From contig CM114271.1 in NCBI GenBank assembly GCA_050084515.1, forward strand, positions 3,286,001 through 3,350,000: a stretch of 64,000 nucleotides of DNA, read 5' to 3'. The position numbers and the translations under genes were made by a program. A model generated the notes under the pieces. That model was given only the letters and a program-made list of their open reading frames with translations. It had not been told where the DNA came from and ran no database searches. Positions 38,469 through 64,000 of the stretch are shown here, piece by piece; the first letter of the stretch is position 1; each line of letters begins with the position of its first letter. This DNA is from Blasia pusilla. Its lineage: Eukaryota.

Positions 38469-39139
38469 CACTAGAAGAAAATGGTGGTTTTTACAACTAG
38501 TAGTTTAATGATTGAGGTTCTTCATGACTCAAACATAAGACTAGAATGTCTGGTAGTCAGATAGAAGTCATATCATACAATATAATAGTAGAGTTTTAGT
38601 CATATAACAATATGACTAAGTCATTGAGAATTCCTAGGATATGGCATAGTCCTATACAAAATGACTTAGTAATTTTTTGGTCTTATGTATAGTCATCCTA
38701 CAAATTTATATGACTCACTTGTTTAAGAATAAAAAATGACTAAACATATCAAGTCATAAGCCAAGTAGAAATGAGGTACACACTGAAGTGAAAAAAAACC
38801 GTTGGGGCTTCTACATTCTCATTAACCTAGTTAAGTGCTTGCTTACGTGGCAGATGACATGGCGTGCTCATGATGCGCGAGCAAAGAAGTGTCTACCGAT
38901 TGGGGGGAGATGCGTGAGGGAGTGTGAGCGAGGGAACCTGATACGAGGGTAGGGCGAGCTAGGCAAAATCGCCGAGGGTAAGGCGATCACTCTAGGGCGC
39001 GAGAGAAGGCGAAGGGGAAGGTGAAGAGAGCAAGACATAGGCAAAGGTGTAGAGAGCATGCTGGTTGAAGGCAAAGGTGAAGAGAGCAGGTTGGGCAGAG
39101 GCAAAGGTGATAGAGGTGGAGTTAGAAGTCGTGATTGCG

Positions 39140-41648
39140 AGAAGGCTATTTTTGGTTGTCATTGTAGACACCTTCCATTAGACCATGCTTGGAGAGGAAG
39201 AGCTTATGGCTCCCAATTCAATGGCTTAGGGGAATCTAGAGTAACACCTAAGGGGGTTACAATTGATGACATTCTAAAATGGGCCGAGGAAAAAAGAATA
39301 TATGAGGAGCATGGGGGACGAGATGATGCTCCTAATGATTCTTGCAAGAGAACAGGGGTGAAGAGGCGAAGTCTTTTGTTTGATTTGCCATATTGGATAG
39401 TATCCACTTTATCCATTTACATTTGCAAAAGTTCATATTATATTTTTTTGAAGTTTAGCTCTCATGCTGAAATCTATTTTCCTTAACATAAGTTAGCATC
39501 TTCTTATTCGACATACATTAGATGTTATGCACGTGGAAGAAAACATATGTGAGAACATGGTGAAGACTCTGCGTGGTATCAAGGATACAGTGAAGTGTAG
39601 AAGAGATATGGAAGCTCGTGGAATTTGACCTCACTTGTCGTTACAACCACATCCAAGTAGGGCTCAAGGACTAGTGAAACCTCAATGTGATTATGTTTTA
39701 TCACCTCAAGATCTGAGCATATTCCTGTATAGGATTGAGTCTTTGAAAGTGTCGACAAGGTATAGTGGAGAGTTAAGGAAACATGTGGTGAAACAACAAT
39801 TGGGTAATATGAAGTCATATGATTATCATGTGTTCATTCACCAAATCCTTCCTTTTGCCCTTCGCGGCCTTATGAAGGATTCAATCCGCTCTACTGTCAT
39901 GCGCTTGAGCAAGATATTTAGGTCATTAGGTTGTAAAGCGTATGATCCTACATCTTATGAACAGTTGCATCAAGATGTAGCCATAACCTTATGTCTCTTA
40001 GAGATGCATTTTCCACCATCCTTTTTTGATGTGATGACACATCTCTTAATCCATCTAATCAAAGAATTGGATATATGTAGTCCATTAGCTTGCCGATGGA
40101 TGTATCCGATAGAAAGATACATAGGTACTTTGAACAAATATGCGAGATCTAAAGTTGGTCGTGAGGGATGCATTGTTGGATTCTCAACATCCACTCCTCT
40201 GAGCATCATTAATCTGATCGGCCCCCTTGTATGAGGAGAAGCCTAGATTGATGGTTCCGACTTAGACGTCAAAGGAGTCATAGTAATATGACCTAGGTGG
40301 TTTACGGAGTAGCGGTACTAGGATTATCTAATTCTATATATGCCGGGGTCCGGGGGCGCAACCCTTGGTATGCCAATACGACGCGGGGGTCTGGGTTTAG
40401 GGTTTAATAGAAACGAAGAAAAATAGGTTAAAACCCTAGTTTCCCGAGTAGTGAAACAATCGGGAGCTGCAGCGGTAGCGCATTCTCATATATCGAGTTA
40501 TCTCTATGTTCAGGTTCCATCGAAGCTCTTATGTGAGCGCATGGACGGACTAGGCCACTTTGTATCTCTAAGTTATGTAAAGATTTTAGTGATTTCGTCA
40601 CTTTGTGTTTTCTCACATGCATGGCCGAGGGGGTATGTAAAAGATGAAGCATTCGGATTTGTGAATGAGTATATGAGGAGATTTGAGCATGTGAGGACCC
40701 GTATTTGGGATAACGGTGAAGAAGAAGGAGTTGGAGGTGAGGAGTTGGAAGGTGTAGGACAGAAAGTTTGATTATCTCGAGAAATGCTACTCTTGGCACA
40801 CCATTATATGTTACATAATATTGAGGCCATGGTTTTATGGCACATGTGCATTTTCAATCAGTCACCTCATTCTCCAAGTATAATAAACTTTTATCCTAAA
40901 TCCTGCTCTTTTTTCTAATCTTCAAGGCCACCCTATTTATTGGTGATGTTATTTTCTTCCTTCTAGAAAATATGAAAGGTAGAGGGCATCAATTCCTTTC
41001 CAAAAGTGGATTCGACCAACCATCCTTCAAGATGCTAGGGAGAATGATGGGAAAGTGGATGAAGAGGCTTTGGCCTTGTCAACCCCTCCGCAACCCAAAG
41101 TAAAATCATATAAGTCTATGAAGGCTTATGGAAATCACTTCAGAGTAGAGGGAGAGGGTGGACGGAATGCATATTCAAGTTATGATAGTGGAATTGGAGC
41201 CATATTTTTGGATGAAGAGAAGGGGGACCAAAATTGTGCCTATTCATATGTGGGAGTCCTAGTAGATATTCTTGCATTTGATTATGGGATTTTAGAAAGA
41301 CCTATAATATTAATGAGAGGGAGGTGGGTGAGGGCAGATTGGGACTCTCGCATGCCCTCAATGAAGCGAGATCGTGAAGGCTTCCTACTCGTGAATCTTC
41401 GATTTTGTGAGCCAGCTATAGTGGACCACCAACCCTTTGTGTTCCCATCTCAATTGGAACAAGTTTTCTTTGGAGATGCAAATGAGGGAAGTGGATGGAA
41501 TGTAGTTTTGAGGAAAGAGGCTAGATCTCGTCGGGTGATTTTTTATATCTATGATGGTGGAAACCCAAATCAAGTCCATTCAATTGGCCTCAATCACCTA
41601 GAAGCCATGCCCCATAGGATACCACCAGAAAACACTATCGGGCCATAG
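39140..41648 (+). pseudogene. CACTA TNP2/TnpD-like transposase, C-terminal half only
   Basis: GVKRRSLLFDLPYW, HTLDVMHVEENICE, KSYDYHVF, FPPSFFDVMTHLLIHL, RWMYPIERY, EGC|MAEGY (split by a solo LTR), PFVFPSQLEQVFF...GWNVVL. Confidence 0.88.
40174..40617 (+). repeat. Ty1/copia solo LTR inserted in the transposase
   Basis: TGTTGGATTCTC...TTCTCACA with TSD TGCAT (40169-40173 and 40618-40622). Confidence 0.95.
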
Positions 41649-42017
41649 AGCTCACAGATGAGGAGCTATTGATTGCAAATAAAGATGTTTACAATGTCCC
41701 TAGCATCCATGTTTCCACGGAAGTGGTTTCTCAAGATGAAATTACGAAAGGCGATGTAGGTCTTTGATTATAGTGTAATGTCTAACATATTGTAAATTGG
41801 CCTATATGTCTTGCTTTAAGTAGTGAGTTTGAAGTATAAGCTATGGTATATAAATTTTGGACTATATTGAGTATCAAATTTTTGCATTTGAGTATCTATC
41901 TTGTACTGAGCCTAATTGAGCTCCTTGACATATATTTTTTAGCATAAACATTTTGAATGGCATTCCAAGCCATCCCCGATAGCACATTAGGTGGTCAGGG
42001 GGAAGCTCGGTTAGACC

Positions 42018-45000
42018 TTGAGGCCATTCTTGCTTTTGAAGGCTTGGGTGATAGCAGATGGGAAGAACCATCAGGTTTGGTTGGTGAAATGGAGACATAA
42101 AAAAAGCAAGAGTGAGATATATGTTTGTTGCATGTACCTACATGATGATATACATTATGAGAGTTGGGAACCCTATTCGAGTGCAGTAGAGGAGAGTGCA
42201 TGTCATGTGGATACAATGAATCCCAATGTGTGCATTAATTTTGATGAGCTCCATGGAGTTGGAGATGCAAATGGAGAAGAGGCTGAGAGAGGGGAGCTTG
42301 AATTAGCCAAGAAAACAAGTGGAGAGAATGATGAGAGGATTAGATCTGCATTTTTTGTTGGAGATAGGAATGTAGAATCTCTTATACCTCTTAGAAGTTA
42401 TGAGAAACTTCATAGAAAATCCATGGAAAACACTCATGGTATTATGGGGAAAACTATGGAAGACTATGAGTCAATGATGGTTATAAACCAAAATAGTTGT
42501 TCAAGCGTACATAGAAAAATTAGCCTAGTAGCTATTCCACATACAAGTATCTCCAAGGAGGACCTTGATTGCTGCAGGGATAAAGTTTTGGCTTATGATT
42601 TGAGTTTAGAAGGGGGAGAAGCACCTAAGGTGTTGGAAATACATGCAACGTACATGGCTCAAGAGAGAGAACCATCATCTGTCTACATGACCACTGAGTT
42701 AGAAGAGGAAGGTAATGTGGATAAGGACCCTCATGCTGACTTTCCAATTGATGAAGAAGGGGAACGAAAGATAAGGCAAAACAAAAGATTTGCAACACGC
42801 AAACTTCGTGACATTCCTACAGAGTAAGGAACTCTCCCTCTTGAATAATGAATATGTGGGCTTATGAGAGGTTCATTTAAGCATATTCATGGATTCTAGG
42901 TATTTCATGCTCTTACATGGTTTGTAAAAATGGATTTTTGCATTATTTCTTAAGTATGTTTGATGGTAAAATGATTGTTTGGAAAGGTTGAGATCAACAA
43001 AGCCACCCAGGAAAATCCAATCTTCTAGGGCAGTAGTGCCAAAGGTTGTGCAATTGCGACAAAGTTCAAGGTTGACATCGAAGGACAAGAATCCTTTAAT
43101 GCTCGAAAGCATGCAGGATAATAGAGTGACTGATCCAAATTATATGCCATCTGAAAATATGGATTATCATCCTGGTGATGAGGAAGATTTATCTGATCAA
43201 CCAGATAAAAAACATGATCGTGGGCCTACAACCCACCCTAAGCAGGTTGAGAGGGTAACTACATCTTTTCTAAACTAGCATCATCATGATTCATTGAAGG
43301 ATGATTCATTGCATCCATGTTTTCATTCTGGTTTCAACCACACTAACTCTGGAATATATTTCATAGGCCCAAGTAATTGGAGGAAGAGAGCAAATGGAGA
43401 TACGTCACCAAGGGAGACAAGAAATGGGATGGCAATATCCAACATACCCTAATCCCACATGGACACAAAGTGGGAGTCAGTATTGGAGTACTCACATGGG
43501 CCCAAGGTGGTACGATTCCGAACATGATTCATCAATGGTGAATCATGGACCTGTTGGCTCTTACAATGTGATGCAACCCCCTCCCCCTCCACCACAACGG
43601 AGTGCACAAACTCCTGTTCCTCAAATAAGCACCCAAAAACCATGGGTTGGTGGAATGCCTTGGTCACAACCAATACCAATAGATCATCAATGGATGGGGA
43701 ATACCCAATTTGGTTTACAAACATGCACTCAAGAATGTTGGCCTCCTCGCACACCATCTTCCCAACCAATGGAAAGTCAAGAACAATGGGGTACCCCCAT
43801 TCATGGGCAACCATGGGCAAGGCAAAGTGTAAAATCTATTACCTTGGAAAATTCTTGCATTGAATATTTTGATTATAGGTTTCCAGATATCATAGAATTA
43901 ATGTGGGAGTCTGAGTGGAACGAGTAGACTCATAATTGAGCTAGTATAACTTGTAGCATTGGATTTCCGCGTGTGTGTATATATATATACCCCATAAATG
44001 AGTTCTGATTGCTAGTTTCTTTCTTATGATAGGATGGAGGATCATGCCCACCCCCTTCATATCCAGCAGGTGGAGAAGGTTTTGACTCAACATTTTGTGA
44101 TGGGTCATCGGGATTTGTTGGGACGAGTGTACATTCGCAGCAAAGTGACTCTTGGTCTTTCATGGCCCCTAGTCTCTCCAAATCCATAATTAATAGTTGG
44201 ATATATAGTGTCTACATATAGTCTCTTCATATGGGTGGCATAAGTGCCAATTCAGCGTGGTTAGGATGTTATAATGTGAGATGCTAGTAATTGTCTTCTC
44301 ATGTTGGTTGAAAAAATATTTATTTGCTGCTTTTCTCTTTTCAGGTAATAGGGCAAGTGCAAGGAGAAGTAGAATCAAGAGGGACTTGTGGAATCGAGAT
44401 GTTGCTCAATGCAAGGAGCAAAACCTTCTACCCATATGCGAATTGTTGCCTACTGGTGTCCCTAAGACAAAGGTGCCTGGTTATGAACCATGGTTGAATG
44501 ATTTGAAGGTATAGACCATGTGCTATCTCGACTTATCGTGTGTCGAGATGAGTAGGCAAGACGCTTTTAGTGTGGCTAGTGTTCGTAACCATATCGAGAG
44601 TGCATACGCATATGTTGGCGCATAAGCACTGTATTTGGACTTCCTGAAGAAGAAATGTGCACAATTGTTAAAAACATAACGGTCCGCCATGAAAGCATAT
44701 TGGGTGGCCAATGGGGCTCATGTCGATGTCCCATGCCACCCTGATGCAAAGAAGGATGTGTGGGGACGATTGGTAGATTACTGGCTTTGAAGAGGGTATG
44801 TTGAAGGCCCAAAAGCTGGTGAGCGCAAGATCCAAGGTTGTCACTTTAAAACACACCGGCAGGGGAGGATTAGATGGGTTTTCTATAAGTTATTCTTAGC
44901 TTTCTTATTTACTATGTTCTATGATTTATTCAAGTGATGTCTACTAAATATCAAAGGTTGATCTAACTTCCCTTTGTTTCTCTTATTCATATATAACACG

Positions 45001-46801
45001 GTAGAGGTGTATCGACCACACCAAGCTATGTGGATATCAGTGATAGTGGCCCAAGAGCTTCACAAGGGAGTCTTGTAAGTTACTTGTTGGTTTTTGTGTA
45101 ATCAAAGTTGTATGACACGTCTTCACTTTTCTTGGGATCCAACCTTATGGAAATCACTTTCCTTTTAGTTTTTATCTCATTCTCATTGCTTTCATTGTCT
45201 ATAAAATCTTAGGGAAAAGGTACAATAACATGCATGGATGGTAAGGAACTTGAAGTGGAAATAGCAACAGCAAGTAAGAGCTTTTTTACATGTGGTTCTC
45301 GAGTAAGTCAAGTCGATCCTATTAATTTGGTAAATGTAGGTGGATTGGGTTTTGTTACTTTCTCTTTCTATTTTGTTTCTTCTTGTTGTGTTGAAGTCTT
45401 ATGATTATTATATGGCTAGAGCAAAGATGCAATTTAATTGGATATGTTTTGTTTATTTCCAGCAGAGTGTGGAATAAAATAAAATAACTCTTGAAGGTAG
45501 AGAATAAGTGGAGTGAAGATATGGGTGTAATCAAGGGCCAACTTGAAGAACAAATAGAAAAAAATCAACTACTCTTGGAAAATAAGATGTCCATTAACCA
45601 GAATTTAATTGAGCAGAAGTTGGAAAGGAACCAACAAGAACATAAATAAGCTTTTTCCATGCTTGTTGATATGATCAACAAGCTCTCGGAGAATAAGAGG
45701 CCTACAACATTAGCAAGTGATCTTAACCAATATCAAGAATGTAAGAAATCCTTTCTTCATTGTTCTCTTGTATAATTTTCTATCATGTTATTAGAAACTT
45801 GACACTCTACTCTTAAATTTGTGATGGCAGGTCGCTCTAAGGTACAGACAGAGCATGTGAAAGATCAAGTTGATATTGTAGCAATTGAAAAGGAAGCGTT
45901 AAGGGAGTCGGATAAGCATGTACGTATAGTTCAAGCTGGTATGTGTATAAAAATTCTCATACTACTTGTTAATCTCTTCCACCCATCATTGGAGATTGTA
46001 GCATGGGACATGGTACAGCTTTCCTTGAATATGTTTTGCAACTATCATCCTATATGTATTTCAATTAGAAAAGTACTTTGTAATGTAATGGGTTTCCATT
46101 CTTGGTGCTACATGGAATTCTAGAGGAGCAAGATACCTTTCAGAAAAAAAAGGAGGTTTAACTAAAGTGACGACCGACATCCTTCCAACTGCAAGTAGTG
46201 AACAAGAGAGCGATGTGAAATATGGGAGCACCAAGAAAAACAATGGAAAGGTAAATAGCATTTGATATATATTCTGAAGTCTTTGATCTTCCATGAACAT
46301 CAGGTCCTCACTTGTAGGTATGTGTAGGATTCTGATCTTGCATTATAAATGATCAATAAGTGACTTTTTATGTCAGGTGGGATATGTAAAGTTTTCAAGA
46401 TCTCTACCTTCCGAGGGTTGGTCTTTACCAAGGTAAAAAATAGTTGGTATTTACTTGTCAATCTATGATCTATTTGCTTTTGTTCACTAAGATGATTGGC
46501 TTTTCGGGGTTGTTTGCAGCTTCGGGTGGGAGATGAGGTTCAACTCACCAAACCTAAGCTCAACAGGACCATTTTGGGCCATGGTGTGGTGACACGCTTG
46601 AGTGCATGTGAGAAATTCCATGGGAGTGAAATCCCCTCAGGATTGGTGCGAGTAGACTTGAAGTTTTTTCAATTGGCTTATGTGGATCATTAACTATGGC
46701 AAGCAAATGAGGCAGACATGCCGCCCCAATACACCTTAGGTGATGCTCTTGGGAGTAGTATGCTTTGGCCTGAAGTGAACTTGAAGAAAGTTGTACGATA
46801 G
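42018..46801 (+). pseudogene. CACTA second gene (TNP1/TnpA-like), multi-exon, decayed
   Basis: Short exons with GT/AG introns. The last exon, GHGVV...FHGSEIPSGLVRVDL...YTLGDALGSSMLWP, matches the typical En/Spm TNP1 C-terminal pattern. Confidence 0.6.
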
Positions 46802-47389
46802 ATATCTTCCTTTATTCTAAGCCCAACTTCTATTGTTGATATTTATTGTGTGTCTCTTTTATGGACATTCAATTTTGAAAGGGCTTTACTCTTTACATCA
46901 CTTGGTTATAATAATGAAATGGTTTGTGCTTGCACTTTCTATATGGTTTGTGCTTGCTCTTTCTCTCTGGTTTGTGCTTGCACTTTCTTTCTTCCACTTT
47001 CTATCTGATCTATTGGTTTTGTTCCTACTATTGCAACTTCTCATCATGATTGATGTTTCACAATAAATTTTGAAGGGGATTAACCTTTTCAAAGGGCTAA
47101 ACTATGAAAACAAAAGCTCATTGATGCATTTTCGAGATTTCGGTGTTATGTTAGCATTTTTCAATGTTTCATATTAGACTTATTCGTGCTACATGCTACA
47201 ACATTATTTATTATAGCTCACTCTAAATTAATGTAAGAGTAGCTTGTTAGTGGGACAACTCCTATCTTATAAATCTTAAAAAAAAACTCACTACCATTCA
47301 AACATACTATAAAAAAAACTCTTTTTGACACTAAAGCTCAAAACACCATTAACAAGATTCAGCTAAAGCAAATATAGTCATTTAAATGC

Positions 47390-47910
47390 AACAAATCCAT
47401 CAATATGACTCGTCCATATTTTATGACTAATGTCAATCAATCATTTAAGTATTGCAAACTCATAATTTTGACTTTGTCATATTTTATGACTCGTATATAC
47501 AATCATTTATCCATATCAAACTCAGCAATATGACTTGGTCATACTCTATGACTCATCCACATTTAGTCATTTAGACACTAGAGTGATCACTATGACTCGA
47601 TATAAACTTTTTCCCCAATAATCTCAAGTTATTAAGACAACTTAAGGTGATCAATATTACTCAGTATAAACTTATGATTCAATAATCTCAAGTCATTTAG
47701 ACAAATTAAGGTGATCAATATGACTTAGTAGAATCTTTCGATTCAATAATCTCAAGTAATTTTGAAAATTTAAATTGATCAATATGACTGAATTGTATGG
47801 TATGACTCAATCATATCCTGTTATTTAATCAAGTCATAATGATCAATATGACTAAGTCATGCTTCATGACTCAGTCACATAGATAAGTCAATTTATGAAT
47901 ATGACTTAGT
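47390..47910. repeat. CACTA 3' subterminal repeats
   Basis: Many ATATGACT/AGTCAT units, ending abruptly at 47910 with no TIR. Confidence 0.85.
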
Positions 47911-48892
47911 TGAAACTCAGCCGGGCGTTCTTTAACCCAAATGGTAAGAACCGCCACTGGTACAAACAATCCTTCCCGTGAGGATCGATGCCCCAAAATG
48001 TCGTCTTCTGTCTGTCCTCCAATCTGCTAGGCAACTGATGGTATCCGGCTCGCAAATCCAATGAACAAAAGACCTTTGCGTGACCAATCGCATCAAAGAT
48101 CTCTCAAGGGTGGGCATGGCATACCTATCGGACTTTGTCTACCGATTGATAGGTCGGTAATCCCCACACATACGCCTATCCTTCCAATTGCCATGCACAT
48201 CCTTCTTGGCGGGCATGACACTGGCAGATGCACACTCCCCATGCGACATCTCCACTAGTCCTACTCCAACCAAGTCCTGACTCCTACTCTAAATCAAAGC
48301 CCTCTCCATATAATTATTCCTGTAGGAAGATCGGCGTATCACTCGACAACTCAATGTGGATCCCCGGTCCCTGCAGCGTACCCAAATCCTCCATGCTAAA
48401 TGCAAAGCAACTCCTAAAGCTCGTGAGGAATTGATGTATTTGGCGCCGCTCTCCTCCTGTCAACTTAGGGCCCGTATCTGACTCCCAAGTCTCCATCGTG
48501 ACTACAGTAGGACTCTTCGGCATGGATATCAGTGGTTGCTATGGTGCAACCCCATCTCGAACAACGACACTCGACCGCTCTCCTGCAACCAAGTGCAAAC
48601 TCTGATCTCCTCCACATGCAGGGCCCGGAACCACGCTCGATGTTGTGGCTATCATCTCTTGGCGTACCTGCAAAACATCCCTAGAAGTCCAAGGGTGTCT
48701 CTCCTGATCTCCCCAAGTGTGTTGATCTCCTCGGGTCTCGCCCCCAGCCACTGCCTCCACCATCTCGATAGGGGATTGGGGCTCACCAATGCAACCGCTA
48801 TGATCTGTTGCGATCTCATCTGACGCTGCTCAGCCACTCCTAAGCTGAAGATCCATGTCAAGCAGTTGAGGTCCATCGCTTGACCCAAGAGG
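47911..48892 (-). pseudogene. Fragment F of the DNMT-gypsy pol: DNMT motif X, linker and N-terminal half of RT (inverted)
   Basis: LLGQAMDLNCLTWI, then CFAFSMEDLG, RRMCGDYRPIN, SLDLRAGYHQL, LYQWRFLPFGLKNA, AEFQ. Confidence 0.88.
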
Positions 48893-51352
48893 GTCATGGA
48901 TAGGATCTTGGATGGTTTGGATTTTGCTAGGTGTTATATTGATGACATCGTAGTCTTTAGCACCACGATTGAGGAGCATGAGCGACATCTAGAGGAGGTG
49001 TTTCGACGATTGCAATTATATGGGCTGAAGCTTCATCCAGGCAAGTGCAAGTTCTTCTACGACCAGATTGAGTACTAAGGTCATACGATATACCCAAGGG
49101 GCCTTGGTGTTCAGTAGATGAAGGTAGATGCTATCTCACGCATTCCACGCTCTACAGATGTGAGCCGTGTTCACGTATTCATGGGATTGGCAAACTTCTA
49201 TCGACGGTACGTCAAAGGATTCAGTTTGATTACAAAGCGGCTGACCTTGTTGACCAAGGTGGATCACGAGTGGCACTAGGGGGATGAGCAGGAGCGAGCA
49301 TTTCAATTGCTCAAGGATAAGTTGTTGTCTGCGCCCATCTTGAGGAGACCGATCAGGGGGCGTCCTTTCTAGTTGCACACAGATTGGAGCATGTTGGGGC
49401 TTGGAGCGGTGCTCACGCAGTATGATGATGAGGGTGGAGAGTTCATGGTGGCTTACGCTAGCCGCTTGAACAAAGCTGCAGAGGCTTGTTGACCAAAGGT
49501 GGATCACGAGTGGCTAGGGGATAAGCGAGCATTTATGAAGATGAGTGCCAGCTACGGTGTGGAGCAGGGTCGTGCGATTCGGTGTTACTTATTCGGAAAC
49601 CCCTTTACCATCATCACTGAAGCTTGGGAGATGGGCTCTGTTGTTGCAGGAGTATGATTTTCAGGTGGTACATAGACCTGGGACGCTCAACCAAGATGCG
49701 GATGGGTCGAGTCGTAACCCATGCCCGAGTCAGCGAGATGCGACTGGAGCTCGATGGCATGGAGAGAGTGATGAGGAGTTGGTGCCAGGATGGCACGCGT
49801 CAGCTTATTTAGGCATGTTGGCTATGGAGAACCACAATGTGGAGACTTTGATGGTGAGGTCTAGTGGAGAGTCCTTGGATCCCGAGGCCAGTGAGGATAC
49901 GACAAGTGGCGAGATATTCATGATGATGGAGTAGTCATGGAGTACCTTCGTACTGGCAGCGTTGCGAGCATCGTGGATGCTAGAGAGCGGGATCGGATCC
50001 TACACCGGGCCAGACGGTTCCGTTGGGAGGGGACATATGTTTCGAGGGTTCGGGAGGATGGCAGAGTACGCGTAGTGCCGCATCCTTCGCAGAGAGCACA
50101 ACTAGTGCAGCATGCCCACGAGGAGTGGGTCACTTTGGGGTGAAGCGGACATACAACTTGCTCCAGATTCAGTATTGGTGGCGAGGCATGCAGACTAACG
50201 TTCAACAGTTTGTTGCCAAGTGCATGGTGTGTGATCGAGTCCGAGCATCGTTCAATGCTCCGACTCCACAATTGCATCCACTACCAATCATGGGCTTAGG
50301 GTATAGATGGAGTTTTGATTTTTCAGGACCTTTTCCTTTGACGGAGCGTCACACTCGTTATGTGTTGATGGTGGTCGAGCTCTTCTCGAAGTGGATCGAG
50401 TTGGTTGCATTGCCTGATAAAGCGAGTGAGGGAGTAGCTTATGCCTTCCTTGACAGAGTGTTGAGTCATTATCGCGCACCGGCTGATGTGTTGACAAACT
50501 AGGGTACCGAGTTTTGCGGTGAGTTCGAGGCCTTGTGTGATCAGGCGCTCATCAACCATCGTACGACTTCGCGAGATCATCTCGAGGCAGATGGATTAGC
50601 GGAGAGAGTTGTGCACGGTGAAGAGGGGTTTACGCAAGTATGGCTTGCAAAGAGGTCACCTAGGAGATTGGGACCTCCAGTTGCCATGGTTGGCGATGGG
50701 ATACACTTTCAGCAAGCAAGCATCCTTAACGTCTTTTTCACCATACTTGCTACTTTATGGTCGAGAGCCAAATTTACGTGCGGCCATTCGTCAAGATGCT
50801 GGTGAGGTGCTGGACCTTGATGACCCAAATGTATGGATTCGAGCATGTTCTTAGAGGGCTGAGTTGTTTCGGAGAGTGATGCCCATGGCATTCGAGAACT
50901 TGGCGATTGCGCAACATCGGGATACGTTGAGGTATGCGACTATTCGGGGTGGTGATTATCGACCAACTATCCGGAGGTTTCATGAAGGAGATTATGTCTA
51001 CTTGCAGCAAACGGCACCAACGACGTTGGATGTGATTGTAGGGTGCACTATCCTGAGAATGCGTGACGTTTTGCTATCTGGTGTTCTCTTGTTGGAGGGA
51101 CGCGATGGTATGGTATGGAAGGACCATGTGCGTAATTGTGCGCCATATCACCTTTCTTACATTGATGGTAGAGTAGATCCGAGCTTAGTAGTAGTTCCTG
51201 CAGGCTTGCGTTGTATGTTGTGTGGTTCTGCTTGTGGTGCGGCCACGATGCTAGTTTGTGATGGATGTTCGAGAGGTTGGCATATGGCATGTCTGATGCC
51301 ACCTCTCACTAAGGTTCCTCGGGGATGATGGATGTGTCCCAGATGTACATAG
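48889..51352 (+). pseudogene. Fragment G of the DNMT-gypsy pol: RT C-terminal half, RNase H, integrase, PHD finger
   Basis: RVMDRIL...CYIDDIVVF, LHTDWSMLGLGAVL, HAHE..GHFG..CMVC, RWSFDFSGPF, DGLAER, C-terminal C4HC3. Confidence 0.92.
51212..51349 (+). other. PHD finger at the integrase C-terminus
   Basis: CMLC-x11[29 protein letters not shown] gives the C4HC3 pattern, with one internal TGA. Confidence 0.9.
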
Positions 51353-51668
51353 AGGAGATACTAGGTAGGTTTCGATTCCTACTTTTTCTGTGACATGGAT
51401 GATAGGAAGGCGACTATCGATTGGGCCACATGAGCACCCGGCCTTTCTGCTCTTAGCGTCCTAGAGATGTATGTCGTGGGAGGTAGGGATAAATGGCTAC
51501 TGGAGTTAGAGGGATCTAACTACCAGCTAGGGGGGCGATTGGAGATATTTTGGTACTTCTCGCGTCTGTGTTTGGATGCCATGAGTTAGCATGGGATCGT
51601 GCGTGTTTTGTGTGTGTGTTCGGTGACTGCGATGTATGTTGTGTAACGATGTGTATGCGCATGACAAC

Positions 51669-52189
51669 TGTCACATCTTTTAGGATAGATCGGTAAGATC
51701 TAGTAGAGCGCCTCTGTGAGTAGTGGAGGACTGGCTCAGTAGGTTGAAGATGACGTGCTGAGGCCCCCATAAACCTGAGAGAGTAGGTTTCCCCTTCGTT
51801 TCGGCTCATTTGGAGCCATATTGAGGAACTTTCTATTTTAGGTAAGTACCATTTTGAGTATATGATCGACTTTATATTTTTGGTAAGTGGCCCTTGACCT
51901 CCTACATCAGGTCAAGAACCAAGGAGGTGACTTGGGAGAATAGGTTACCATGGAGAGAACTTGGGAGAGGGGAGGGGTATATATCCCAAGGAGAGAGAGA
52001 GCTTGAGAGCTCATTCTCTCTTTGTTGAACCTCTTGGCATGAGGCGGCGGAGCTATGGTCCCTTGCCTTGTGAGTGTAACCCAAGCCTCTCATTAGGAGA
52101 GTGAGTTTGGTTTGACATGAGAGAGAGAGAGTGCACACCTTTGAGAGCTACGATGTGAGATGGTGTAGAGAGAGATTGGATCTTACTTT
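51669..52189 (+). repeat. 3' LTR (truncated) of DNMT-gypsy B-F-G
   Basis: Starts TGTCAC and is homologous to the LTRs at 1031 and 62275. Followed at 52190-52298 by a second copy of about 51538-51665. Confidence 0.8.
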
Positions 52190-52299
52190 ATTGGAGATAT
52201 TTGGGTATTTCTCGCCTCTATGTTTGGATGCCATGAGTTAGCATGGGATCGTGCGTGTTTGTGTGTGTGTTTGGTGATAGCGATGTGTATGCGTACGAA

Positions 52300-53525
52300 A
52301 GCCCGAATACATTTGAGGGAGAGGATGGTGTCTTGGCTTCATGATAAGCTATCTTGCCTATTTCTTTTGGAGGGGTGGGACTTTCCTCCACAGTCGCATA
52401 TGCTCCTGCAGCCTTTTTGGGGAGTTGGGCGTTGGTAGCGTCGATTATGGCTTCAAGGTTTCTCCAAGGAGATACAACTATCTTGATGGATCATGTCGCC
52501 CATGTAGAGGAGGGGGACCTGTTATTTCAACAACAACCGAGATCTGCACAAGCTCTTCTTCCTCTTGCTACACAAGCAATTCTATCCCTTTTCAGCCAAT
52601 TGATTACGGAAGGGCTTGATCGACTTCAAGAGCATGTCTCCGAGAATGTGCGTTAAATAAACTTTTCCATCATTCTCTCAGAGGCATCCTCTGACGCTCA
52701 TCAAGATGTTTGCGTTCATGTGTGAGTACCGAAGTGAGGGCGTGGCTTGTTGCGAATCCTCTTATTCTTCCATTTCGTCTTCCTCGAAGTATATTCTCGA
52801 CAACTTTGCGGTTACGCCTTGGACTTCCCCATCCTTCTCTGTTAGGTGTGCCGAATTGTGTATGTGGGGATCCCATTGATGCCAAGGGTATCCATATTCT
52901 CCGATGTGCACATGGTGGAGAACGAACGGCCACACATGATGTCATTAGAGAGGCGGTAGCATCAATGGCTCGTATTGTAGGATACACCGTTGGGCAAGAG
53001 CAACTCCATGTCCTACCTTCAACCGCACAAGCAACCTCTCGTCGGAGAGTGGATCTTGTTATGTTTCGAGGTGGATTCCGGACACTAGGTGATGTGGTGG
53101 TTGGTGATCCAACACGTTCTGACTTGGTGTGTCGAGCCACACATACCAAAGGTTCGGCGGCTGAAGCTGCAACAAGAATCAAGGAGTTAAGTTATGTTGT
53201 GAGACATGCAACTGATGGATTTATTCCCTTTGCAATGGAAGTATTCGGTCATTTACATGGGTCTTTTGATACTTTCTTGAAAACATGTGCTCACCACTCC
53301 CTCGAGAATCGTCACCTTGCCCCTTTCCGTAGTCCTTCTCTCTTTGTAGTTACTTCTTATTTTCGGCAAGGCATCTCAATGGTCCTACAATGTGCACAAG
53401 CCTTGGCATTGATACATCGTGCGGAGGTGGTAGGGGGTTGCTCGCCTCGTCGTCCATTCACATTTGACCAACCACTCGTATTCCTGCCAGATTTATTTCA
53501 AACTATCAATCGTGTATCTCGTTGA
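52300..53525 (+). mobile_element. CRE-like non-LTR retrotransposon 3' part: linker, CCHC knuckle and restriction-like endonuclease
   Basis: LPISFGGVGL, LRLRLG, CVCGDPID..HILRC, THDVIR, EQ, RRVDL, DVVVGDP, KELSY, FIPFAMEVFG. Confidence 0.88.
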
Positions 53526-56318: not shown

Positions 56319-56779
56319 CTGAATATCCAAGGTTTAGCCGGCTCACATTCCCTGTTTGGCTACCTATGCAGGTGGACTGGAGAGAGATGGTTTAAACAGG
56401 CCCCTCACTGTCAAAATTCAATGATGTAATGTTTGTGTTGAGGTTGCTGTCTTGTGCTTGTTAAAAAATCTTTCCTTTATTTTCTTTGGTAGGAATGCTG
56501 ACACACTTTTGGGAGAATGCCTGCCTTCACCCCCTCTGCGCTTCATGATTGGCCATGAGAGGGTTTCTCACAGTATCACTAGAGCCTTTGGGATCCTGGT
56601 CGAAGAGTTCAAGTTTGAAGAATCTTAGTGAGAGTTCATTCTCGGGCCCTGTTATCCTTTTCTGAGCTGAAGTGTACATTCATTGTCCTTTCATCTTGGT
56701 ATAATGAGACAATTTAGGTGACGTTTGGCTTCTCTATCGCATTGAATGGTTGACAGAAAGGACAGGAGTGGTAAGCAAA

Positions 56780-59566
56780 ATGATTGTGGAAAAGTTAGAC
56801 TGGCTACGACATGCAGGGCTTCAGATCTTCTCCTTGGATATTCAGCCCGATGGTTTGCGGTTTGCGACAGCTGGAGGTGATCACAAGGTCCGCATATGGA
56901 GCATGACTGCACTGCAGAGCCTTGATCAAGGACCCTCGCAACCGAGGTTGCTTGCTACACTGCGGGATCATTTTGGTTCAGTTAATTGTGTACGTTGGGC
57001 AAAAGGTGGTCACCTCATTGCCTCTGGATCAGATGATCATCTGGTACTAGTGCACAAGAGGCATCCTGGTTCAGGTACAACAGAATTTGGGAGTGGAGAG
57101 CCTCCAGATGCAGAGAACTGGAAAACACTCCTTACACTACGGGGGCACTCAGCTGATGTTGTGGACATTGGATGGTCACCAGATGACTCCATGATTGCAA
57201 GCTGCAGCTTGGACAACACTGTACGGATATGGTCAGCAGTTAATGGAAATTTGATCTCGGTTCTAAATGGCCACAAAAGTTTAGTGAAGGGTGTAGCCTG
57301 GGATCCGGTGGGGTCTTTTCTCGCTAGTCAATCAGATGATAAGTCTGTGATTATATGGCACACAGGCAACTGGGTCATGGTACACAAGGCAGAAGGACCA
57401 TGGGAGAAGACAGTGGGGTTCACATTTTCCCGGCGTCTGGCCTGGTCTCCGTGTGGGCATTTCATTACAACGACACATGGGTTTCAGGAACCAAGTCACA
57501 CTGCGCCTGTGCTAGAAAGAGGAGACTGGTGCACATCTTTTGATTTTGTAGGGCACAATGCCCCAGTAGTTGCAGTGAGATATAACCATTCAATGTTCCG
57601 AAGAGTGCCCGACACCAAGAAGAATGTTGGTGCCAACGATTCCTTTGTAGTTGATGCTGCCCCTTACAATGTGATAGCAATGGGAAGTCAAGACTGCAAT
57701 ATTACAGTGTGGACTACTGCAAGTCCACGCCCAGTATTTGTTGGCAAACATTTTTTCACACAGAGTGTCGTTGATCTATCCTGGAGCACTGATGGATACA
57801 CACTCTTGTGCTGTTCACTTGATGGTACCGTTGCCGCATTCACATTTGAATCTAAGGAATTGGGGTCCAAGGTTACTGAAGAGGAGATGCAGGAGTTCAA
57901 AAAGACAAGGTACGGAGATGTACAGGTGCGGGGTCTTACATTGGTGGAAAGCCCCTCTCAGCTCATCTTAGAAGCTGCTGCAGCAAAGCAATTGGCTAAT
58001 TCCGTGGGCATTCTAGAAGTCCAAGCTTCCGTACCTGAAAAGCCCACAGGTGTTACTGAGGCTCCTTTTGATTCTGCATCCAGCAGAAGAACCCGGGTTT
58101 TGCAGCAGACGGAGTATCGAGGAGCTGATGGACGCCGAAGAATAATCCCGAAGCCTTTGGAACAGGACTTCAAGGAGAACGAAGCTCCTGATGGTTCAAG
58201 AGGGATTCTACATGAGGGATTCTCCAGTCTTGCACAACTGTCAAAGAATGGATTGACTACCACTCATAGATCTGAAACAAGGGAGAGATTGCCTGTGTCA
58301 GAGGGAAAGACCATAGACAGGCAAATGAATGATGTGAGTGGTGGTGATGCTCGACTCAAATCTTCAGTTGACCCCATACCTGCTGAGATGGGCGCAGAAT
58401 TACCGAAACAAATGAACAGGATCCGTACGACCAAGTTATTGGTGCAGCCAGCGATTAATCACAGCGGTGTCCTGTCATTTGAGGTCCAACCACCCTTGGA
58501 AGGACCAATTTGCTTGGAAGCTCGCCCTGCTGGTGTGCAGCAGAAAGGTGGATCAGTGGGGGAGGCAAATGGCTTGGGAGATGGTAGTGTGGAAACTGAT
58601 CTTGTCTGCTCACAAGGAGGAAAGGTTCTTTGGTGCGACCGACTAAAGAGAAAGGCCACGATTTTGACTGGCAATATGAATTTCTGGGTGGTGGCTTGTG
58701 ATGATAACAGTGTGCAGGTTTACACCGTTGCAGGCAGACAAGCTCTGCCACTCATCATTTTGAGTGCTCCGGCTGCATTCATGGACTGTGACAAAGGTTG
58801 GAATCTGCTGCTACTCACGGGATGTGGGTCCTTGCATATGTGGGATTTGCGTGGATGTACGAGTGTCCTTCAGGAATCAGTTTCTGCTTTGTTATCATGT
58901 TATCCAAGCCCACCCTCTCCTGAAGGTCAGATTAAGGTAATCTCAGCAAGAATATCTGATGTGGGTGCACCACTGGTTGTGCTTGAAAACCATCATGCAT
59001 TCCTCTTCCATTTGGATCTGCGATGCTGGCTTAGAGTAGCTGACTCTTTCCCATCTTCAACTTTCTGTGCATTTAAGCCTATAGTAACACCCATGGTCAT
59101 GAAAGGTATCCCAGACACCAAGAAGTCAGGTTCGCTGTTTGCTGATGGAACATCCTTCAGTTTGGCGAGGGCCTCTGCACATGATGCTGGAAGCTACAAC
59201 AGGTCGCAACTAGAGGGTCAAATGGCTGCCGCCTTAGCTCTCCAGTGTGCAGAGGATTATCGAAGATGTCTCTTGGCTTATGCTCGATGCCTTGCACGGG
59301 ATGCAGACAAGCCAAGACTAAGAGAACTGTGTGAAGAGCTGCTAGGCCCTCGACATGCACCAGAAATAAACCACTCAAAAGATATCACAGCTGCACCGGA
59401 ATGGAACCAGTACATTCTTGGCATGAAGAAGCGTGACTTACTCAAACAGGATGTGTTACCTGCTATGGCATCTAACAGGGCTATCCAAAGACTTTTGAGT
59501 GAATTTGTAGATCTACTTACTGAAATTGAATCAAGGATTCAGCAAGGGATATCTGATGATGTATAG
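56780..59566 (+). CDS. HIRA: Histone chaperone HIRA (928 aa), intronless
   Basis: N-terminus MIVEKLDWLRHAGLQIFSLDIQPDGLRFATAGGDHKVRIW, WD40 repeats, ASF1-binding B-domain EYRGADGRRRIIP, C-terminal Hira domain (RLRELCEELLGP). Single uninterrupted ORF. Confidence 0.96.
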   Translation: MIVEKLDWLRHAGLQIFSLDIQPDGLRFATAGGDHKVRIWSMTALQSLDQGPSQPRLLATLRDHFGSVNCVRWAKGGHLIASGSDDHLVLVHKRHPGSGTTEFGSGEPPDAENWKTLLTLRGHSADVVDIGWSPDDSMIASCSLDNTVRIWSAVNGNLISVLNGHKSLVKGVAWDPVGSFLASQSDDKSVIIWHTGNWVMVHKAEGPWEKTVGFTFSRRLAWSPCGHFITTTHGFQEPSHTAPVLERGDWCTSFDFVGHNAPVVAVRYNHSMFRRVPDTKKNVGANDSFVVDAAPYNVIAMGSQDCNITVWTTASPRPVFVGKHFFTQSVVDLSWSTDGYTLLCCSLDGTVAAFTFESKELGSKVTEEEMQEFKKTRYGDVQVRGLTLVESPSQLILEAAAAKQLANSVGILEVQASVPEKPTGVTEAPFDSASSRRTRVLQQTEYRGADGRRRIIPKPLEQDFKENEAPDGSRGILHEGFSSLAQLSKNGLTTTHRSETRERLPVSEGKTIDRQMNDVSGGDARLKSSVDPIPAEMGAELPKQMNRIRTTKLLVQPAINHSGVLSFEVQPPLEGPICLEARPAGVQQKGGSVGEANGLGDGSVETDLVCSQGGKVLWCDRLKRKATILTGNMNFWVVACDDNSVQVYTVAGRQALPLIILSAPAAFMDCDKGWNLLLLTGCGSLHMWDLRGCTSVLQESVSALLSCYPSPPSPEGQIKVISARISDVGAPLVVLENHHAFLFHLDLRCWLRVADSFPSSTFCAFKPIVTPMVMKGIPDTKKSGSLFADGTSFSLARASAHDAGSYNRSQLEGQMAAALALQCAEDYRRCLLAYARCLARDADKPRLRELCEELLGPRHAPEINHSKDITAAPEWNQYILGMKKRDLLKQDVLPAMASNRAIQRLLSEFVDLLTEIESRIQQGISDDV

Positions 59567-61426: not shown

Positions 61427-62274
61427 TTTGTATGAAGCATGATTCATACATGAATTGCATTTGGCGCGGACTACACAATAGTGTCTAACAAGTGGATGAT
61501 CTTTAAGAGGAGATTAAGGAGGTTTTTTAGATTTTGTAATAAGTAAGACTAGATATGAATGAAAGGAGTACATCCATTGGAAGGAATGGGCGGGGGTTTG
61601 CTGGTTTCAAATGGGACACCCAAGGGATCCTCCAAGGATTTAGGGAGGAATCCTGCAAAAGCTAATCTTGGACATGACTAAAGGGACAATACCTTGCCTT
61701 AAAAAACTTAGGTATTTATAAAATAAATTATTCATAAAAGTATGTAATATCCTAAAACCAACTTAGAATCTATTGGAAGGACATATAAATTCTAATAGTT
61801 GGAACTAGTCCCCTCCTTAGTGAAGTAGGAGGAGGAGAGAACATGGAGGATTGTAATGTGTTTTGCTAGTTTCCATTTTCTTTTTGTGTTTCTTGCCTCC
61901 TCTTCTTGGGATGTTGTTACCTTTCTTTCTCCTCTTTTGAATTTTATTTTTCTAATTAAAATTGAACCTAAAAAATGGATATCTATAATATTAAAAATTT
62001 GATATATGTTGGAAAGGTGCACATGTGTAGATGCTAGTTTGTTTTATTATTAGCATTTGCACATGTTAGATGTTAAATTCAAGTACGACTCAAACTGTGC
62101 TTTTTCTTGCTTGACGAATATGAGATTACATAAAAGTGAATACGAGACATGACTGAAAGAAAATGGGGAATCCCAAAAGACTTATGAGGAGGGAAACTCC
62201 AAGGTTAGAAAAAAAAGGTAACTCTTAAAATATAATATCACAAACACCCGAAATAATCTATATTATTATGGGAG

Positions 62275-64000
62275 TGTCACGTCGTTTAGAATAGATCGGT
62301 GAGCTCTAGTAGAGCGTCTTCAAGAGTAGTGGAGGACAGGCCTAGGAGGTCGAGGATGACAAGCTGAGGCCCCAGGAAACCTGAGAGAGCAAGTTTCCCC
62401 TTCGTTTTGGCTCACTTGGAGCCATATTGAGGAACTTACTATTTTAGGTAAGTACCATTTTGGGTATATGATCGACTTTCTATTTTTGGTAAGTGGCCCT
62501 TGACCTCCTACATCAGGTCAAAAGCCAAGGAGGTGACTTGGGAGAATACGTTACCATGGACAAAGCTTGGGAGAGGGGAGGGGTATATATCCCAAGGAGA
62601 GAGAGAGCTTGAGAGCTCATTCTCTCTTTGTTGAACCTCTTGGCATGAGGCGGCGGAGCTATGGTCCCTTGCCTTGTGAGTGTAACCCAAGCCTCTCATT
62701 AGGAGAGTGGGTTTGGTTTGACATGAGAGAGAGTGCACACCTTTGAGAGCTATGGTGTTAGATTGTGTAGAGAGAGATTAGATCTAATCTCTCTCTACAC
62801 AAAGAGAGAATTTGAGAGCTACAATGCGGGAGCTTGGTGGAGTTTCGATGTGTATGTAGGTTAGGGACCGTGTTCCCTGCTTCATGACTCATGGGAGTGC
62901 TCACGGGAGCAAGAGTCATTCAGTTTGATGTTTTCCTTTACTGTTTTTTCGTACGGGAGAGTGGCGTGCGGAAGCGTTGCCCAAATGTTGGTAGAATTTG
63001 AGTGTGTGGGAGGATTACCCATGCCGGTGCTCTGGGGAGCACCATACAGCTTTCTGATTTTTCTTTTCACAAGTTTTATATTTTCTTTGGGAGAAATCAG
63101 CGCGGAAGCGTTGCCGAATGTTGGGTAGAAGAAAGAGACGTTGGGCTTTACGACAATCCCCGTCAGTTTTTACAGGAATGTCCAATTCAAATACTTTGTA
63201 ATTTTGGCGTAGATCGTGAAGCTTTGCACGCTGTGCAACAAACAGTGCGCAATTTGGAGTTGCGAGCAAAAAGTTATGGTCAATCTTGCAAAACTGCCAT
63301 TGCTAGGCGATTTTTAGGGTTAAATTGTGCAAACCCTTAACCAACCGCCACACCGGCGGCGGCCGTCGCCGTCATAGTCAACGGTCAACCGTCACCATCA
63401 CAGGTCAACCATCACCAACGACGGTCAACCGTCAGTGTCACCGTTCGGCCGTCACCATCAACGGTCAACCGTCACCGTCAATGGTCCACCGTCCGTTGTC
63501 CACCCTTGGTTGCCATTGCCGCCGTTACGGAGTGGAGGGTCTTCCACAACGTTCGTTGATTCTCGGACTTGCGTCGCCATCACGTACTTTGTTTTGGTCG
63601 CCACCGTCATCAACCTGTGATGGCATATGACCTCCTGTTATAGTGTTTGAGTTTTGATTTCATGCTGCTATGTTATGATTGGTAGCCGCTCAACGACGAT
63701 CGGGTACCGTGCGGTGACGCTCGTAGCCGCAACGCGCCACCGATTTCCGCGCCGTGCTGCTCATGGCCGCACCGCACCGTCTCGATCTCAGAGCCGCTTG
63801 GGCATTGTGGAGCAGAGTGTGGGTTTATTGTTGATTGAGGAGGGTATGCCGCCGAGTGCCGCATCCCATCATCGAGGGCCGTGCCGTTCGTAGCCGTTCC
63901 GTGCCGCCTGCAACGCCGCATTGTTCTGCTGGAACCGCACCGTCTATCGAGGAGTTTTGAGCAACGTTAGTACGGGAGGAGTATGACTTGCTAATTGGAG
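62275..64000 (+). repeat. LTR of the DNMT-gypsy family (at least 1.7 kb, runs off the window)
   Basis: Starts TGTCAC. Homologous to 1031-1876 plus the reverse complement of 38019-38468, and to 51669-52189. CG-rich CGGTCAACCGTCACCATCA micro-repeats at about 63360-63500. Confidence 0.85.

Follow-up and report, generated by a model that had tools for sequence, protein, structure and literature searches.

What part does a PHD finger play at the end of Pol in a retrotransposon whose family also encodes a DNA methyltransferase (DNMT)? The question is raised by a stretch of 64,000 nucleotides from the liverwort Blasia pusilla (GenBank assembly GCA_050084515.1, contig CM114271.1, forward-strand positions 3,286,001 to 3,350,000; hereafter the window, with position 1 at its first letter), in which a decayed Ty3/gypsy copy ends in such a finger. 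A first-pass annotation of these letters had taken the finger and a DNMT3-like domain to be the reader and the writer of one polyprotein, steering integration and methylation to silent chromatin. Our analysis led us to another reading, which we consider reasonably probable: the finger in the window is the integrase end of a broken Gypsy-DNMT3 element, and in intact relatives the finger would tether the integrase to the tail of histone H3.

A PHD finger at the C-terminus of Pol

The 3' part of the copy contains the following features.

50023–50616, forward strand: integrase zinc-binding domain and DDE core (frame 1; in-frame stop at 50500; Pfam and tblastn)
50600–51211, forward strand: C-terminal region of the integrase, from the core to the PHD finger (frame 2; in-frame stop at 50852; tblastn)
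51212–51349, forward strand: C4HC3 PHD finger, the C-terminal domain of Pol (frame 2; Pfam PF00628 and translation)
51326–51328, forward strand: in-frame TGA within the finger, in the P-x-G-x-W loop (translation)
51350–51352, forward strand: TAG stop ending Pol, one residue past the last zinc ligand pair (translation)

In the frame-2 translation the finger has the canonical spacing C-x2-C-x11-C-x2-C-x4-H-x2-C-x14-C-x2-C with 8/8 zinc ligands, which span from C1 at 51212 to C7 ending at 51346 and are followed by a threonine and the TAG. The 38 residues ahead of the in-frame TGA match PF00628 with an E-value of 8.9e-9 and 35.7 bits (cut-off 24); with X in place of the stop, 47 of the 47 profile positions are matched (E 3.1e-8). 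The letter at 51326 is a different one in most of the contig depth of runs X2 and X4 and in nine of nine RNA reads of run X22, indicating that most other copies are without the stop. The finger sits about 200 residues past the integrase zinc domain (PF17921, E 3.9e-13) and core (PF00665, E 3e-8), which is the place of the chromodomain in chromoviruses. A Pfam search found no Chromo domain in the window copy, and the PHD finger fills that position. The first-pass placement of a C4HC3 finger at the end of Pol, 3' of the integrase core and in the chromodomain position, is borne out by these results. Relatives of the window clade likewise end Pol 1–13 residues past the PHD finger.

The finger and the integrase end were also found together in other proteins. 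By tblastn, the region 50600–51211 matches residues 779–1028 of P0004 (67% identity) and residues 359–608 of P0002 (73%), and the 250 residues of integrase end plus PHD finger are 73–74% identical to P0001 and P0002. Submitting these 250 residues as the query, with X at the stops, found 64 longer proteins with E-values down to 1e-124, and an exhaustive HMMER search with the same stretch returned 6419 cluster representatives with E<=1e-3, of which 301 reached E<=1e-30; among the best 150 of these 301, the alignments mostly run to the end of the PHD finger. That the finger is an exon or pseudogene piece of a host chromatin gene, outside any transposon, has a negligible probability. The Marchantia gene Mp_7g09570 (P0002), whose sole annotation is 'PHD-type domain', might be cited for it, but P0002 itself can be aligned with both the DNMT and the integrase of the element, the finger is in the same frame as the integrase and collinear with it, and its close relatives are all Pol proteins. 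The sequence comparisons led us to conclude that the finger is a genuine C-terminal domain of the integrase and no chance match.

The decayed copy holding the finger

Upstream of the integrase, the copy continues with two segments of opposite orientation.

48894–49829, forward strand: C-terminal half of the reverse transcriptase (RT) and RNase H (RH) (frames 2 then 3; five in-frame stops)
47900–48891, reverse strand: inverted segment with the tail of DNMT3 motif X (LLGQAMDLNCLTW), a linker and the N-terminal half of RT ending '...FGLKNAPAEFQ' (tblastn with P0204, P0205 and P0210 from Marchantia)

The forward segment matches RVT_1 positions 132–205 and RT_RNaseH_2 by Pfam and P0004, P0217 and P0205 by tblastn; its RT half (48894–49621) begins with the residues RVMDRILDG, and RNase H reaches to 49829. 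The order of the Pfam matches on the plus strand (RVT_1, RT_RNaseH_2, Integrase_H2C2, rve) is that of Ty3/gypsy Pol, and a protease (PR) motif, DSGA, is located in a separated upstream fragment. Between 48887 and 51349 there are eight in-frame stops and at least four frame changes. The PHD-bearing copy is dead and without activity.

The break within RT is absent from other copies. A second fragment in the window, at 30880–31265, carries an unbroken RT with 86–90% identity on either side of the break, and other copies yielded reads (in two DNA runs, each from a different study, and 20 RNA reads) that connect 47923 with 48888 on opposite strands. Since RT is contiguous in the reads of other copies, the inversion appears to be private to the window copy.

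The gap between RNase H and the integrase (INT) is 138 bp, compared with 513 residues in P0054, and leaves no space for a DNMT. Pfam found no DNMT on the strand of the PHD finger between 43000 and 54000, nor in the 93 remaining open reading frames (ORFs) of at least 90 residues in the window; the DNMT is missing from these ORFs because stops cut it. The DNMT of the window was detected by tblastn with relatives and by a scan read through the stops.

Proposed reconstruction of one former element

The tblastn searches found DNMT-like stretches at 3507–2109 (reverse strand) and 29897–30830 (forward strand). The first of these, together with the features that flank it and the inverted segment, is relevant to the origin of the PHD-bearing copy.

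2109–4047, reverse strand: protease and DNMT3-like domain (ten in-frame stops, one frameshift; Pfam PF00145; 46–53% identity to 15 Marchantia models)
11572–12966, reverse strand: gag of the former element (tblastn with P0204, residues 21–488), with a young Ty3/gypsy element nested between it and the protease
1869–2108, forward strand: degenerate terminal inverted repeat (TIR) of CACTA type with the same subterminal repeats as the CACTA transposon below, adjoining the DNMT fragment
38469–47899, forward strand: CACTA transposon with its left TIR CACTAGAAGAAAATGG at 38469 and its transposase at 39025–41648, adjoining the inverted RT segment

When read through the stops, 3507–2284 matches PF00145 (E 2.5e-9). 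The minus strand displays the protease motif LLDSGA (3717–3700) and, for the DNMT, motif I LDLFGG (2988–2971), motif IV PC (2730–2716, GWPC followed by a stop), ENV (2595–2581) and GSRAHR (2484–2467). The best solved matches are DNMT3A, DNMT3B and DNMT3C (E ~1e-9), ranking above bacterial methylases, so that on sequence grounds the DNMT is DNMT3-like, as had been annotated. A protease-DNMT query found 19 longer proteins, 15 of which are gene models of Marchantia polymorpha (43–58% identity) and one of which is from Sphagnum fallax. The Marchantia models lie collinearly on the window in the order gag (CCHC), protease, DNMT, linker, RT and RNase H.

The ends of the fragments complement each other. 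The last residue of the fragment 4047–2109 corresponds to residue 1179 of P0204 ('...VSEASRRH'), and the first residue of the inverted segment corresponds to residue 1180 ('LLGQAMDLNC'; 'LLGQAMDLNCLTW'); this stretch is motif X, whose counterpart in DNMT3A is RQRLLGRSWSV. At the second break the inverted segment ends in AEFQ and the forward part begins with RVMD, and relatives read unbroken '...NAPAEFQRVMDRIL...' with no residue lost or doubled. At both internal breaks the match is thus codon-exact. Each of the outer junctions (2108|2109 and 47899|47900) adjoins a cluster of ATGACT/AGTCAT repeats of CACTA type. On its right side the CACTA transposon has these subterminal repeats, which also follow its left TIR, and no right TIR; correspondingly, the cluster at 47250–47899 is without a TIR and that at 1869–2108 opens with a degenerate one. 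We infer that 1869–2108 is the missing right end of the CACTA transposon in inverted orientation, and that the break lies inside the subterminal repeats, not at the terminus. Undoing two adjacent inversions (2109–47899 and 47900–48891) yields an intact CACTA transposon and the order gag-PR-DNMT3-RT-RH-INT-PHD on one strand. Because the breakpoints are complementary and codon-exact, the protease-DNMT piece and the PHD copy are probably parts of one former element, broken at DNMT motif X, in RT after AEFQ and in the CACTA interior by two adjacent inversions.

Two other routes were considered and dropped: homologous recombination between inverted copies would give two complete chimeric elements, not complementary halves, and a plain transposon insertion at the break disagrees with the order and orientation of the halves. 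The remaining rival is that the PHD piece and the DNMT piece derive from separate family copies, their matching breakpoints being coincidental or an assembly artefact. Besides this one, at least two partial copies are present in the window, and the family is very abundant in the runs, so that independent fragments should be common. Some observations count against a single element directly. Its reconstruction requires two inversions with a shared breakpoint; no reads with 31 letters on both sides bridge the junctions checked (47899|47900 and ~48890), the former being crossed by contigs of three runs with only ~11 letters and the latter by none; and no repeat A (A1; the repeats are described below) was found upstream of the gag pieces within the window, which leaves the 5' end of the element undefined. 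Two different copies would nevertheless have to match to the codon at two breakpoints (P0204 1179|1180 and AEFQ|RVMD), and both outer junctions would have to lie within subterminal repeats of CACTA type, in two complementary parts, one without and one with a TIR. We roughly estimate the chance that one breakpoint pair agrees within two residues of a ~2000-residue polyprotein at ~0.2%, and regard the origin from two copies as unlikely.

In the window as it now lies, the body of the DNMT is ~45 kb from the PHD copy and on the opposite strand. The earlier assignment of both domains to one polyprotein holds for relatives, in which they do occur in the same protein (130 of 311 related proteins), contrary to the refuting condition named in the first pass that the two never share an element, but not for the present state of the window copy, which keeps only the last DNMT motif.

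Domain orders among the relatives

We classified 311 fetched proteins with our own hidden Markov models for DNMT, RT and INT and with a regular expression for the PHD finger. The 130 proteins possessing both DNMT and PHD fall in the first three classes.

RT-DNMT-INT-PHD: 81 of 311
DNMT-INT-PHD: 46 of 311
DNMT-RT-INT-PHD: 3 of 311 (P0015, P0227, P0228)
RT-INT-PHD: 32 of 311
INT-PHD: 83 of 311
PHD only: 25 of 311
other classes, without PHD: 41 of 311

Pfam agreed with the assigned architecture in all 12 proteins scanned whole (including P0015, P0029, P0054, P0220, P0227 and P0287). Chlorophyte-type proteins have the DNMT between RNase H and the integrase, and the gap from RT to INT in the 81 RT-DNMT-INT-PHD proteins has a median of 832 residues. 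In the streptophyte type, the DNMT lies between the protease and RT. The full order gag-PR-DNMT3-RT-RH-INT-PHD is common to three of the 130 proteins and to gene models of Marchantia, Sphagnum and Klebsormidium; P0227 (2358 residues) combines Asp_protease, DNA_methylase, RVT_1, RNase H, integrase and PHD in one protein. Among the 32 RT-INT-PHD proteins, two are truly without a DNMT, since more than 600 residues stand ahead of their RT.

The nearest relatives of the integrase end plus PHD finger are Marchantia Mp_7g09570 (73% identity) and Pols of 1033–1083 residues (64–67%), followed by proteins of Klebsormidium nitens (52%; P0017 and P0049) and Tetrabaena (44%). Chlorophyte sources comprise Volvox, Tetrabaena, Pleodorina, Haematococcus, Chlamydomonas eustigma and Chromochloris. 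These sequences establish a lineage widespread in green algae, Klebsormidium, liverworts and mosses, in which most long polyproteins have a predicted DNMT3-like domain.

In a tree of 56 INT-PHD rows, the window copy falls in an 11-row clade (SH-aLRT 100) with P0004 to P0013 and P0015, the last of which has the order DNMT-RT-INT-PHD. This clade lies within an 18-row clade (98), no member of which has a DNMT between RNase H and the integrase, and the 18-row clade is placed among RT-DNMT-INT-PHD rows. The tree fits a single relocation of the DNMT within the element and is no proof of it.

Three side observations concern the chlorophyte-type proteins and their kin. P0287 (2306 residues) displays RT, RNase H, DNMT, integrase, PHD (1923–1967) and a chromodomain (1993–2043), so that a PHD finger and a chromodomain can coexist behind one integrase. 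Many chlorophyte-type relatives extend for 100–500 uncharacterised residues past the PHD finger. In P0137, P0143 and P0093, which have a chlorophyte-type DNMT, motif IV reads GWEC, not GWPC.

Sequence class of the finger

The solved PHD fingers nearest to that of the window are CHD4 PHD1/2 (E 1.4e-16), PHF12, KDM5B PHD1 (1.3e-14), Lid, KDM5A PHD1 and DPF3; further chains are MLL3/KMT2D, ATXR5, PHF21A/BHC80, KAT6A, BAZ2A/B, WSTF, AIRE and UHRF1. The proposed AIRE/CHD4/KDM5-PHD1-type class is therefore supported, CHD4, KDM5A/B PHD1 and AIRE being among the nearest solved chains. We take these nearest fingers to be readers of the unmodified H3 tail, with lysine 4 (H3K4) unmodified. Readers of H3 unmethylated at K4 (H3K4me0) have no aromatic-cage tryptophan two residues before the zinc-binding histidine (His-2), and their acidic residues N-terminal of the Leu-Leu-Cys-Asp strand contact K4 and R2. 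In solved relatives, this strand, the Asp after C3 and the PPL...P-G-W-C-P-C loop form the groove for the H3 tail.

The window finger reads SRGWH, with Gly at His-2, as had been noted in the first pass, and Trp at the position just before the histidine (His-1). Among 270 family fingers, obtained from the 311 proteins, Gly at His-2 is found in 253 and Asp after C3 in 254; His-1 is aromatic in 260/270 and Trp in 180/270, the solved fingers of the alignment having Tyr or Phe there, and Trp two residues before C6 is present in 248. The family as a whole keeps all three of the groove elements named above. In the chlorophyte type, Met-Leu-Leu-Cys-Asp is preceded by an acidic patch that typically reads P-D-D-E (on average 2.08 acidic residues; n=127), and KDM5B PHD1 has the same patch in the alignment. 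By its sequence class, the window finger may read an H3 tail unmethylated at K4; the window clade, however, is without the acidic patch.

Proposed role of the finger

We propose that, in intact members of the family, the PHD finger would tether the integrase complex to nucleosomes via the N-terminal tail of H3, much as a chromodomain may do. By its sequence class, the finger would most likely read a tail without H3K4 methylation, and such reading would disfavour insertion at active promoters. Separately, the DNMT3-like enzyme would methylate CG sites of the element's own DNA, as has been proposed in print for the family. In the window clade, where the DNMT is set apart from INT-PHD by RT and RNase H and the element encodes a protease, the mature DNMT and INT-PHD would probably be separate proteins.

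The ADD domain of animal DNMT3 is a zinc-finger reader of unmethylated H3K4 which is adjacent to the catalytic domain and regulates it. Its parallel with the present family is conceptual only: the PHD finger is on the integrase, and RT and RNase H lie between the finger and the DNMT. An ADD-like fused reader-writer, as suggested in the first pass, is accordingly not implied by the anatomy of the window clade. A functional coupling of reader and writer is conjectural, and that integration and methylation are steered to silent chromatin is speculative.

Tethering to the H3 tail has to be weighed against two other roles, and several points limit our reading as a whole. The acidic patch of the chlorophyte type is lost in the streptophyte type (mean 0.44 acidic and 1.12 basic residues in 16 hand-picked fingers) and the window finger has 0 acidic residues there; with the patch missing, the ligand in the window clade may differ. 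The protein sets were seeded with INT-PHD or PR-DNMT, so that the share with both DNMT and PHD is not an unbiased frequency, and 30 of the 32 RT-INT-PHD proteins are too short N-terminally (<=209 residues) to show an upstream DNMT. The tree is a quick version with a midpoint root and SH-aLRT support only. The finger might be an integrase accessory whose ligand is a nucleic acid (DNA or RNA), a host protein or a histone in another state, or which only stabilises integrase assembly, and not a reader of H3K4me0. The replacement of the acidic patch with neutral or basic residues in the window clade would agree with such a role, as would the Trp at His-1 in 180/270 fingers, where aligned solved fingers have Tyr or Phe. 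We consider this possible but doubtful, given that the strand, the Asp after C3 and the loop described above are conserved in the family and that the matches to H3-tail readers reach E-values of 1e-14 to 1e-16.

The other role is that of the first-pass annotation, in which the PHD finger and the DNMT3-like domain form one reader-writer unit convergent with ADD, and sensing of H3K4me0 steers both integration and methylation to silent chromatin. The co-occurrence of both domains in 130/311 related proteins, the class of the finger (its nearest solved relatives include AIRE, BHC80 and KDM5 PHD1) and the DNMT3-like nature of the enzyme speak for it, and in the chlorophyte type the DNMT is directly ahead of INT-PHD (81 proteins), so that a DNMT-INT-PHD protein is conceivable there. 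In the window clade, however, RT and RNase H separate the two and a retroviral-type protease is encoded. At least two relatives with more than 600 residues before RT have the PHD finger and no DNMT, and one relative adds a chromodomain; the finger behaves as a DNMT-independent accessory of the integrase. A single reader-writer unit therefore seems unlikely to us, and we retain the tethering of the integrase, with the DNMT acting separately, as the preferred reading.

A wider scenario can be sketched, to which we attach a low probability. The PHD-bearing integrase and the DNMT3-like enzyme might be an ancient toolkit of the green lineage, in which an H3K4me0-type reader would take the role of ADD, insertion and self-methylation would occur in H3K4-unmethylated chromatin, hidden from selection and host surveillance, and the DNMT would have moved once, from between RNase H and INT to between PR and RT, towards the streptophytes. 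Retrotransposons equipped with chromatin tools of their own illustrate the adaptation of mobile DNA to silencing by the host, and here a histone-reader finger and a DNMT3-like enzyme travel together, with two positions of the DNMT, in a large green-lineage family that includes liverworts and mosses. Intact natural relatives exist for study, namely Marchantia copies and the single-ORF proteins P0015 and P0227.

Relation to published elements

The window element belongs to the known Gypsy-DNMT3 family and is no new kind of element. De Mendoza 2018 (PMC5890265) describes Dnmt3 within the Pol ORF of a Gypsy element of K. nitens with DIRS-like repeats, that is, repeats A1 and A2 with B repeats flanking A2, and reports that retrotransposon DNMTs perform de novo CG methylation. 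The text and supplements of that paper, figure content apart, contain 0 occurrences of PHD. The published family nevertheless appears to possess the finger. The partial K. nitens protein KFL_009030040 (P0223) has the order DNMT-RT-RH-INT and stops 44 residues before the PHD position of P0222, a PHD-ending protein to which it is 75% identical over 949 residues; KFL_005000010 (P0017), consisting of INT and PHD, is 79% identical to P0223. From the likeness of these three proteins, the published Klebsormidium Gypsy-Dnmt3 almost certainly has this PHD finger. KnitGypsy-Dnmt3 resembles the window element in being a Ty3/gypsy element with a DNMT3-like domain in the Pol ORF. It has DIRS-like split repeats, of which the window copy shows B-A2-B, with no A1 found upstream of gag. 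Over the integrase end plus PHD finger of the window, K. nitens proteins show 52% identity. The window copy differs in being dead, rearranged and from a liverwort, its nearest named relatives being from Marchantia, Riccia and Calypogeia.

Other systems share parts of this design. Chromoviruses likewise have a small histone-reader domain at the integrase C-terminus, a chromodomain there and a PHD finger here. Among host chromatin proteins, the fingers of KDM5A and KDM5B (PHD1), CHD4 (PHD1/2), BHC80/PHF21A and AIRE (PHD1) are the best matches (E 1e-16 to 1e-9); they share with the window finger the pattern CDxC...H..CL.PPL...P.G.W.CP.C and the absence of Trp at His-2, but the acidic residues of KDM5B PHD1 are missing in the window clade. 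Perez-Alegre and colleagues reportedly described in 2005 an LTR (long terminal repeat) element of Chlamydomonas with a PHD finger, REM1. Published sources name the PHD finger as a common accessory domain of Chlamydomonas retrotransposons, including REM1, and a legend in PMC9940879 gives Gypsy-7a_cRei as GAG, PROT, RT, RH, PHD, INT. These green-lineage LTR elements have a PHD finger like the window family, whereas the descriptions available list no DNMT and the legend puts the PHD ahead of INT. Integration targeting via histone marks is cited in PMC6673714 and in a preprint (bioRxiv 10.64898/2026.05.21.726589). The same preprint describes EpiLTRs, LTR elements that also stack epigenetic modules; they carry DAM, a DNMT4-related DNMT and a chromodomain, the accessible text names no PHD in that context, and the streptophyte Gypsy-DNMT3 is treated there as a separate acquisition.

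The earlier statement that PHD-bearing gypsy elements are known from non-seed plants did not find support, the searchable texts naming the PHD finger only in LTR elements of Chlamydomonas. The REXdb survey of plant LTR elements mentions neither a PHD finger nor a methyltransferase. In searches of the full text of openly readable papers, we found no text naming a PHD finger with Gypsy-DNMT3, or the family in liverworts or mosses. The link between the PHD finger and Gypsy-DNMT3 may merit a statement in print.

3' repeats and state of the family

The copy is followed on its 3' side by a split-direct-repeat structure.

51538–51635, forward strand: repeat B, first copy, 3' of the Pol stop (91.8% identical to 52190–52286)
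51669–52190, forward strand: repeat A2, starting with TGTCAC (other A copies at 1012–1856 and 62261–63107; 86% and 91.5% identity)
52190–52286, forward strand: repeat B, second copy; B-A2-B forms the split-direct-repeat 3' end

Joints from the end of A to the start of B are present in many contigs of run X1 and in one of run X4, which makes B-A2-B a feature of the family. An assignment of 51669–52190 as an unrelated solo LTR was dropped; it is now read as the A2 of the split-direct-repeat end.

The summed contig depth over the element in the runs of organism A is hundreds-fold above that over the flanking CACTA repeats and highest over repeat A; the family is clearly abundant in the organism, depth being no copy number. 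Other copies of the family are transcribed: 242 reads of the RNA run were placed, 240 of them at 95–99% identity and derived from other copies, with the first mate mostly on the minus strand. Comparison of window 47400–52400 with runs X1, X2, X4 and X22 showed that the window has A or T where other copies have G or C (19–24 A>G and 18–24 T>C places per run), most other kinds of difference numbering <=7 per DNA run. An A/T bias of this kind would be expected if methylated cytosines had been deaminated in the window copy.

At least two further partial copies of the family are present. The plus-strand copy consists of gag (22944–24604) and PR-DNMT (29279–30842) and is split by a nested insertion with 310-bp repeats at 24713–25022 and 28965–29275 (87% identical). 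The minus-strand copy consists of gag (33031–31324) and RT (31263–30877), and the two meet tail to tail near 30860.

Neighbouring and nested elements

The young element that separates gag from the protease is as follows.

4049–11408, reverse strand: nested, unrelated Ty3/gypsy element, intact-looking and young (LTRs at 4049–5053 and 10410–11408, 98.8% identical)

It is flanked on both sides by the 5-bp target duplication ATAAA. With LTRs of ~1005 bp, it encodes a gag-PR ORF of 449 residues and an RT-RH-INT ORF of 912 residues. Its integrase ends after SH3_Tf2-1, with no chromodomain or PHD finger, and shows ~30% identity to the PHD family.

The ORFs of the CACTA (En/Spm) transposon match Transposase_21, DUF4218 and DUF4216. 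A Ty1/copia element at 33250–38016 (forward strand) has Retrotran_gag_2, gag_pre-integrs, SH3_retrovirus and RVT_2 and LTRs of 223 bp that are 94.6% identical; pieces resembling a Ty1/copia LTR are also found at 17931–18159 and 40404–40617. Just past the 3' repeats of the element, a 276-residue ORF (52695–53525, forward strand) contains a C-x-C...H...C motif. Pfam gave no hit for it at E<=0.01, and it resembles the C-terminal portion of a protein from another retroelement. Further downstream, 56708–59566 (forward strand) is an uninterrupted ORF of 952 residues that encodes a histone chaperone of HIRA type (matches to the CAF1B/HIR1 beta-propeller at E 2.4e-54 and to the Hira domain at E 6.6e-37) and which, being intronless, could be a retrocopy or a real gene.

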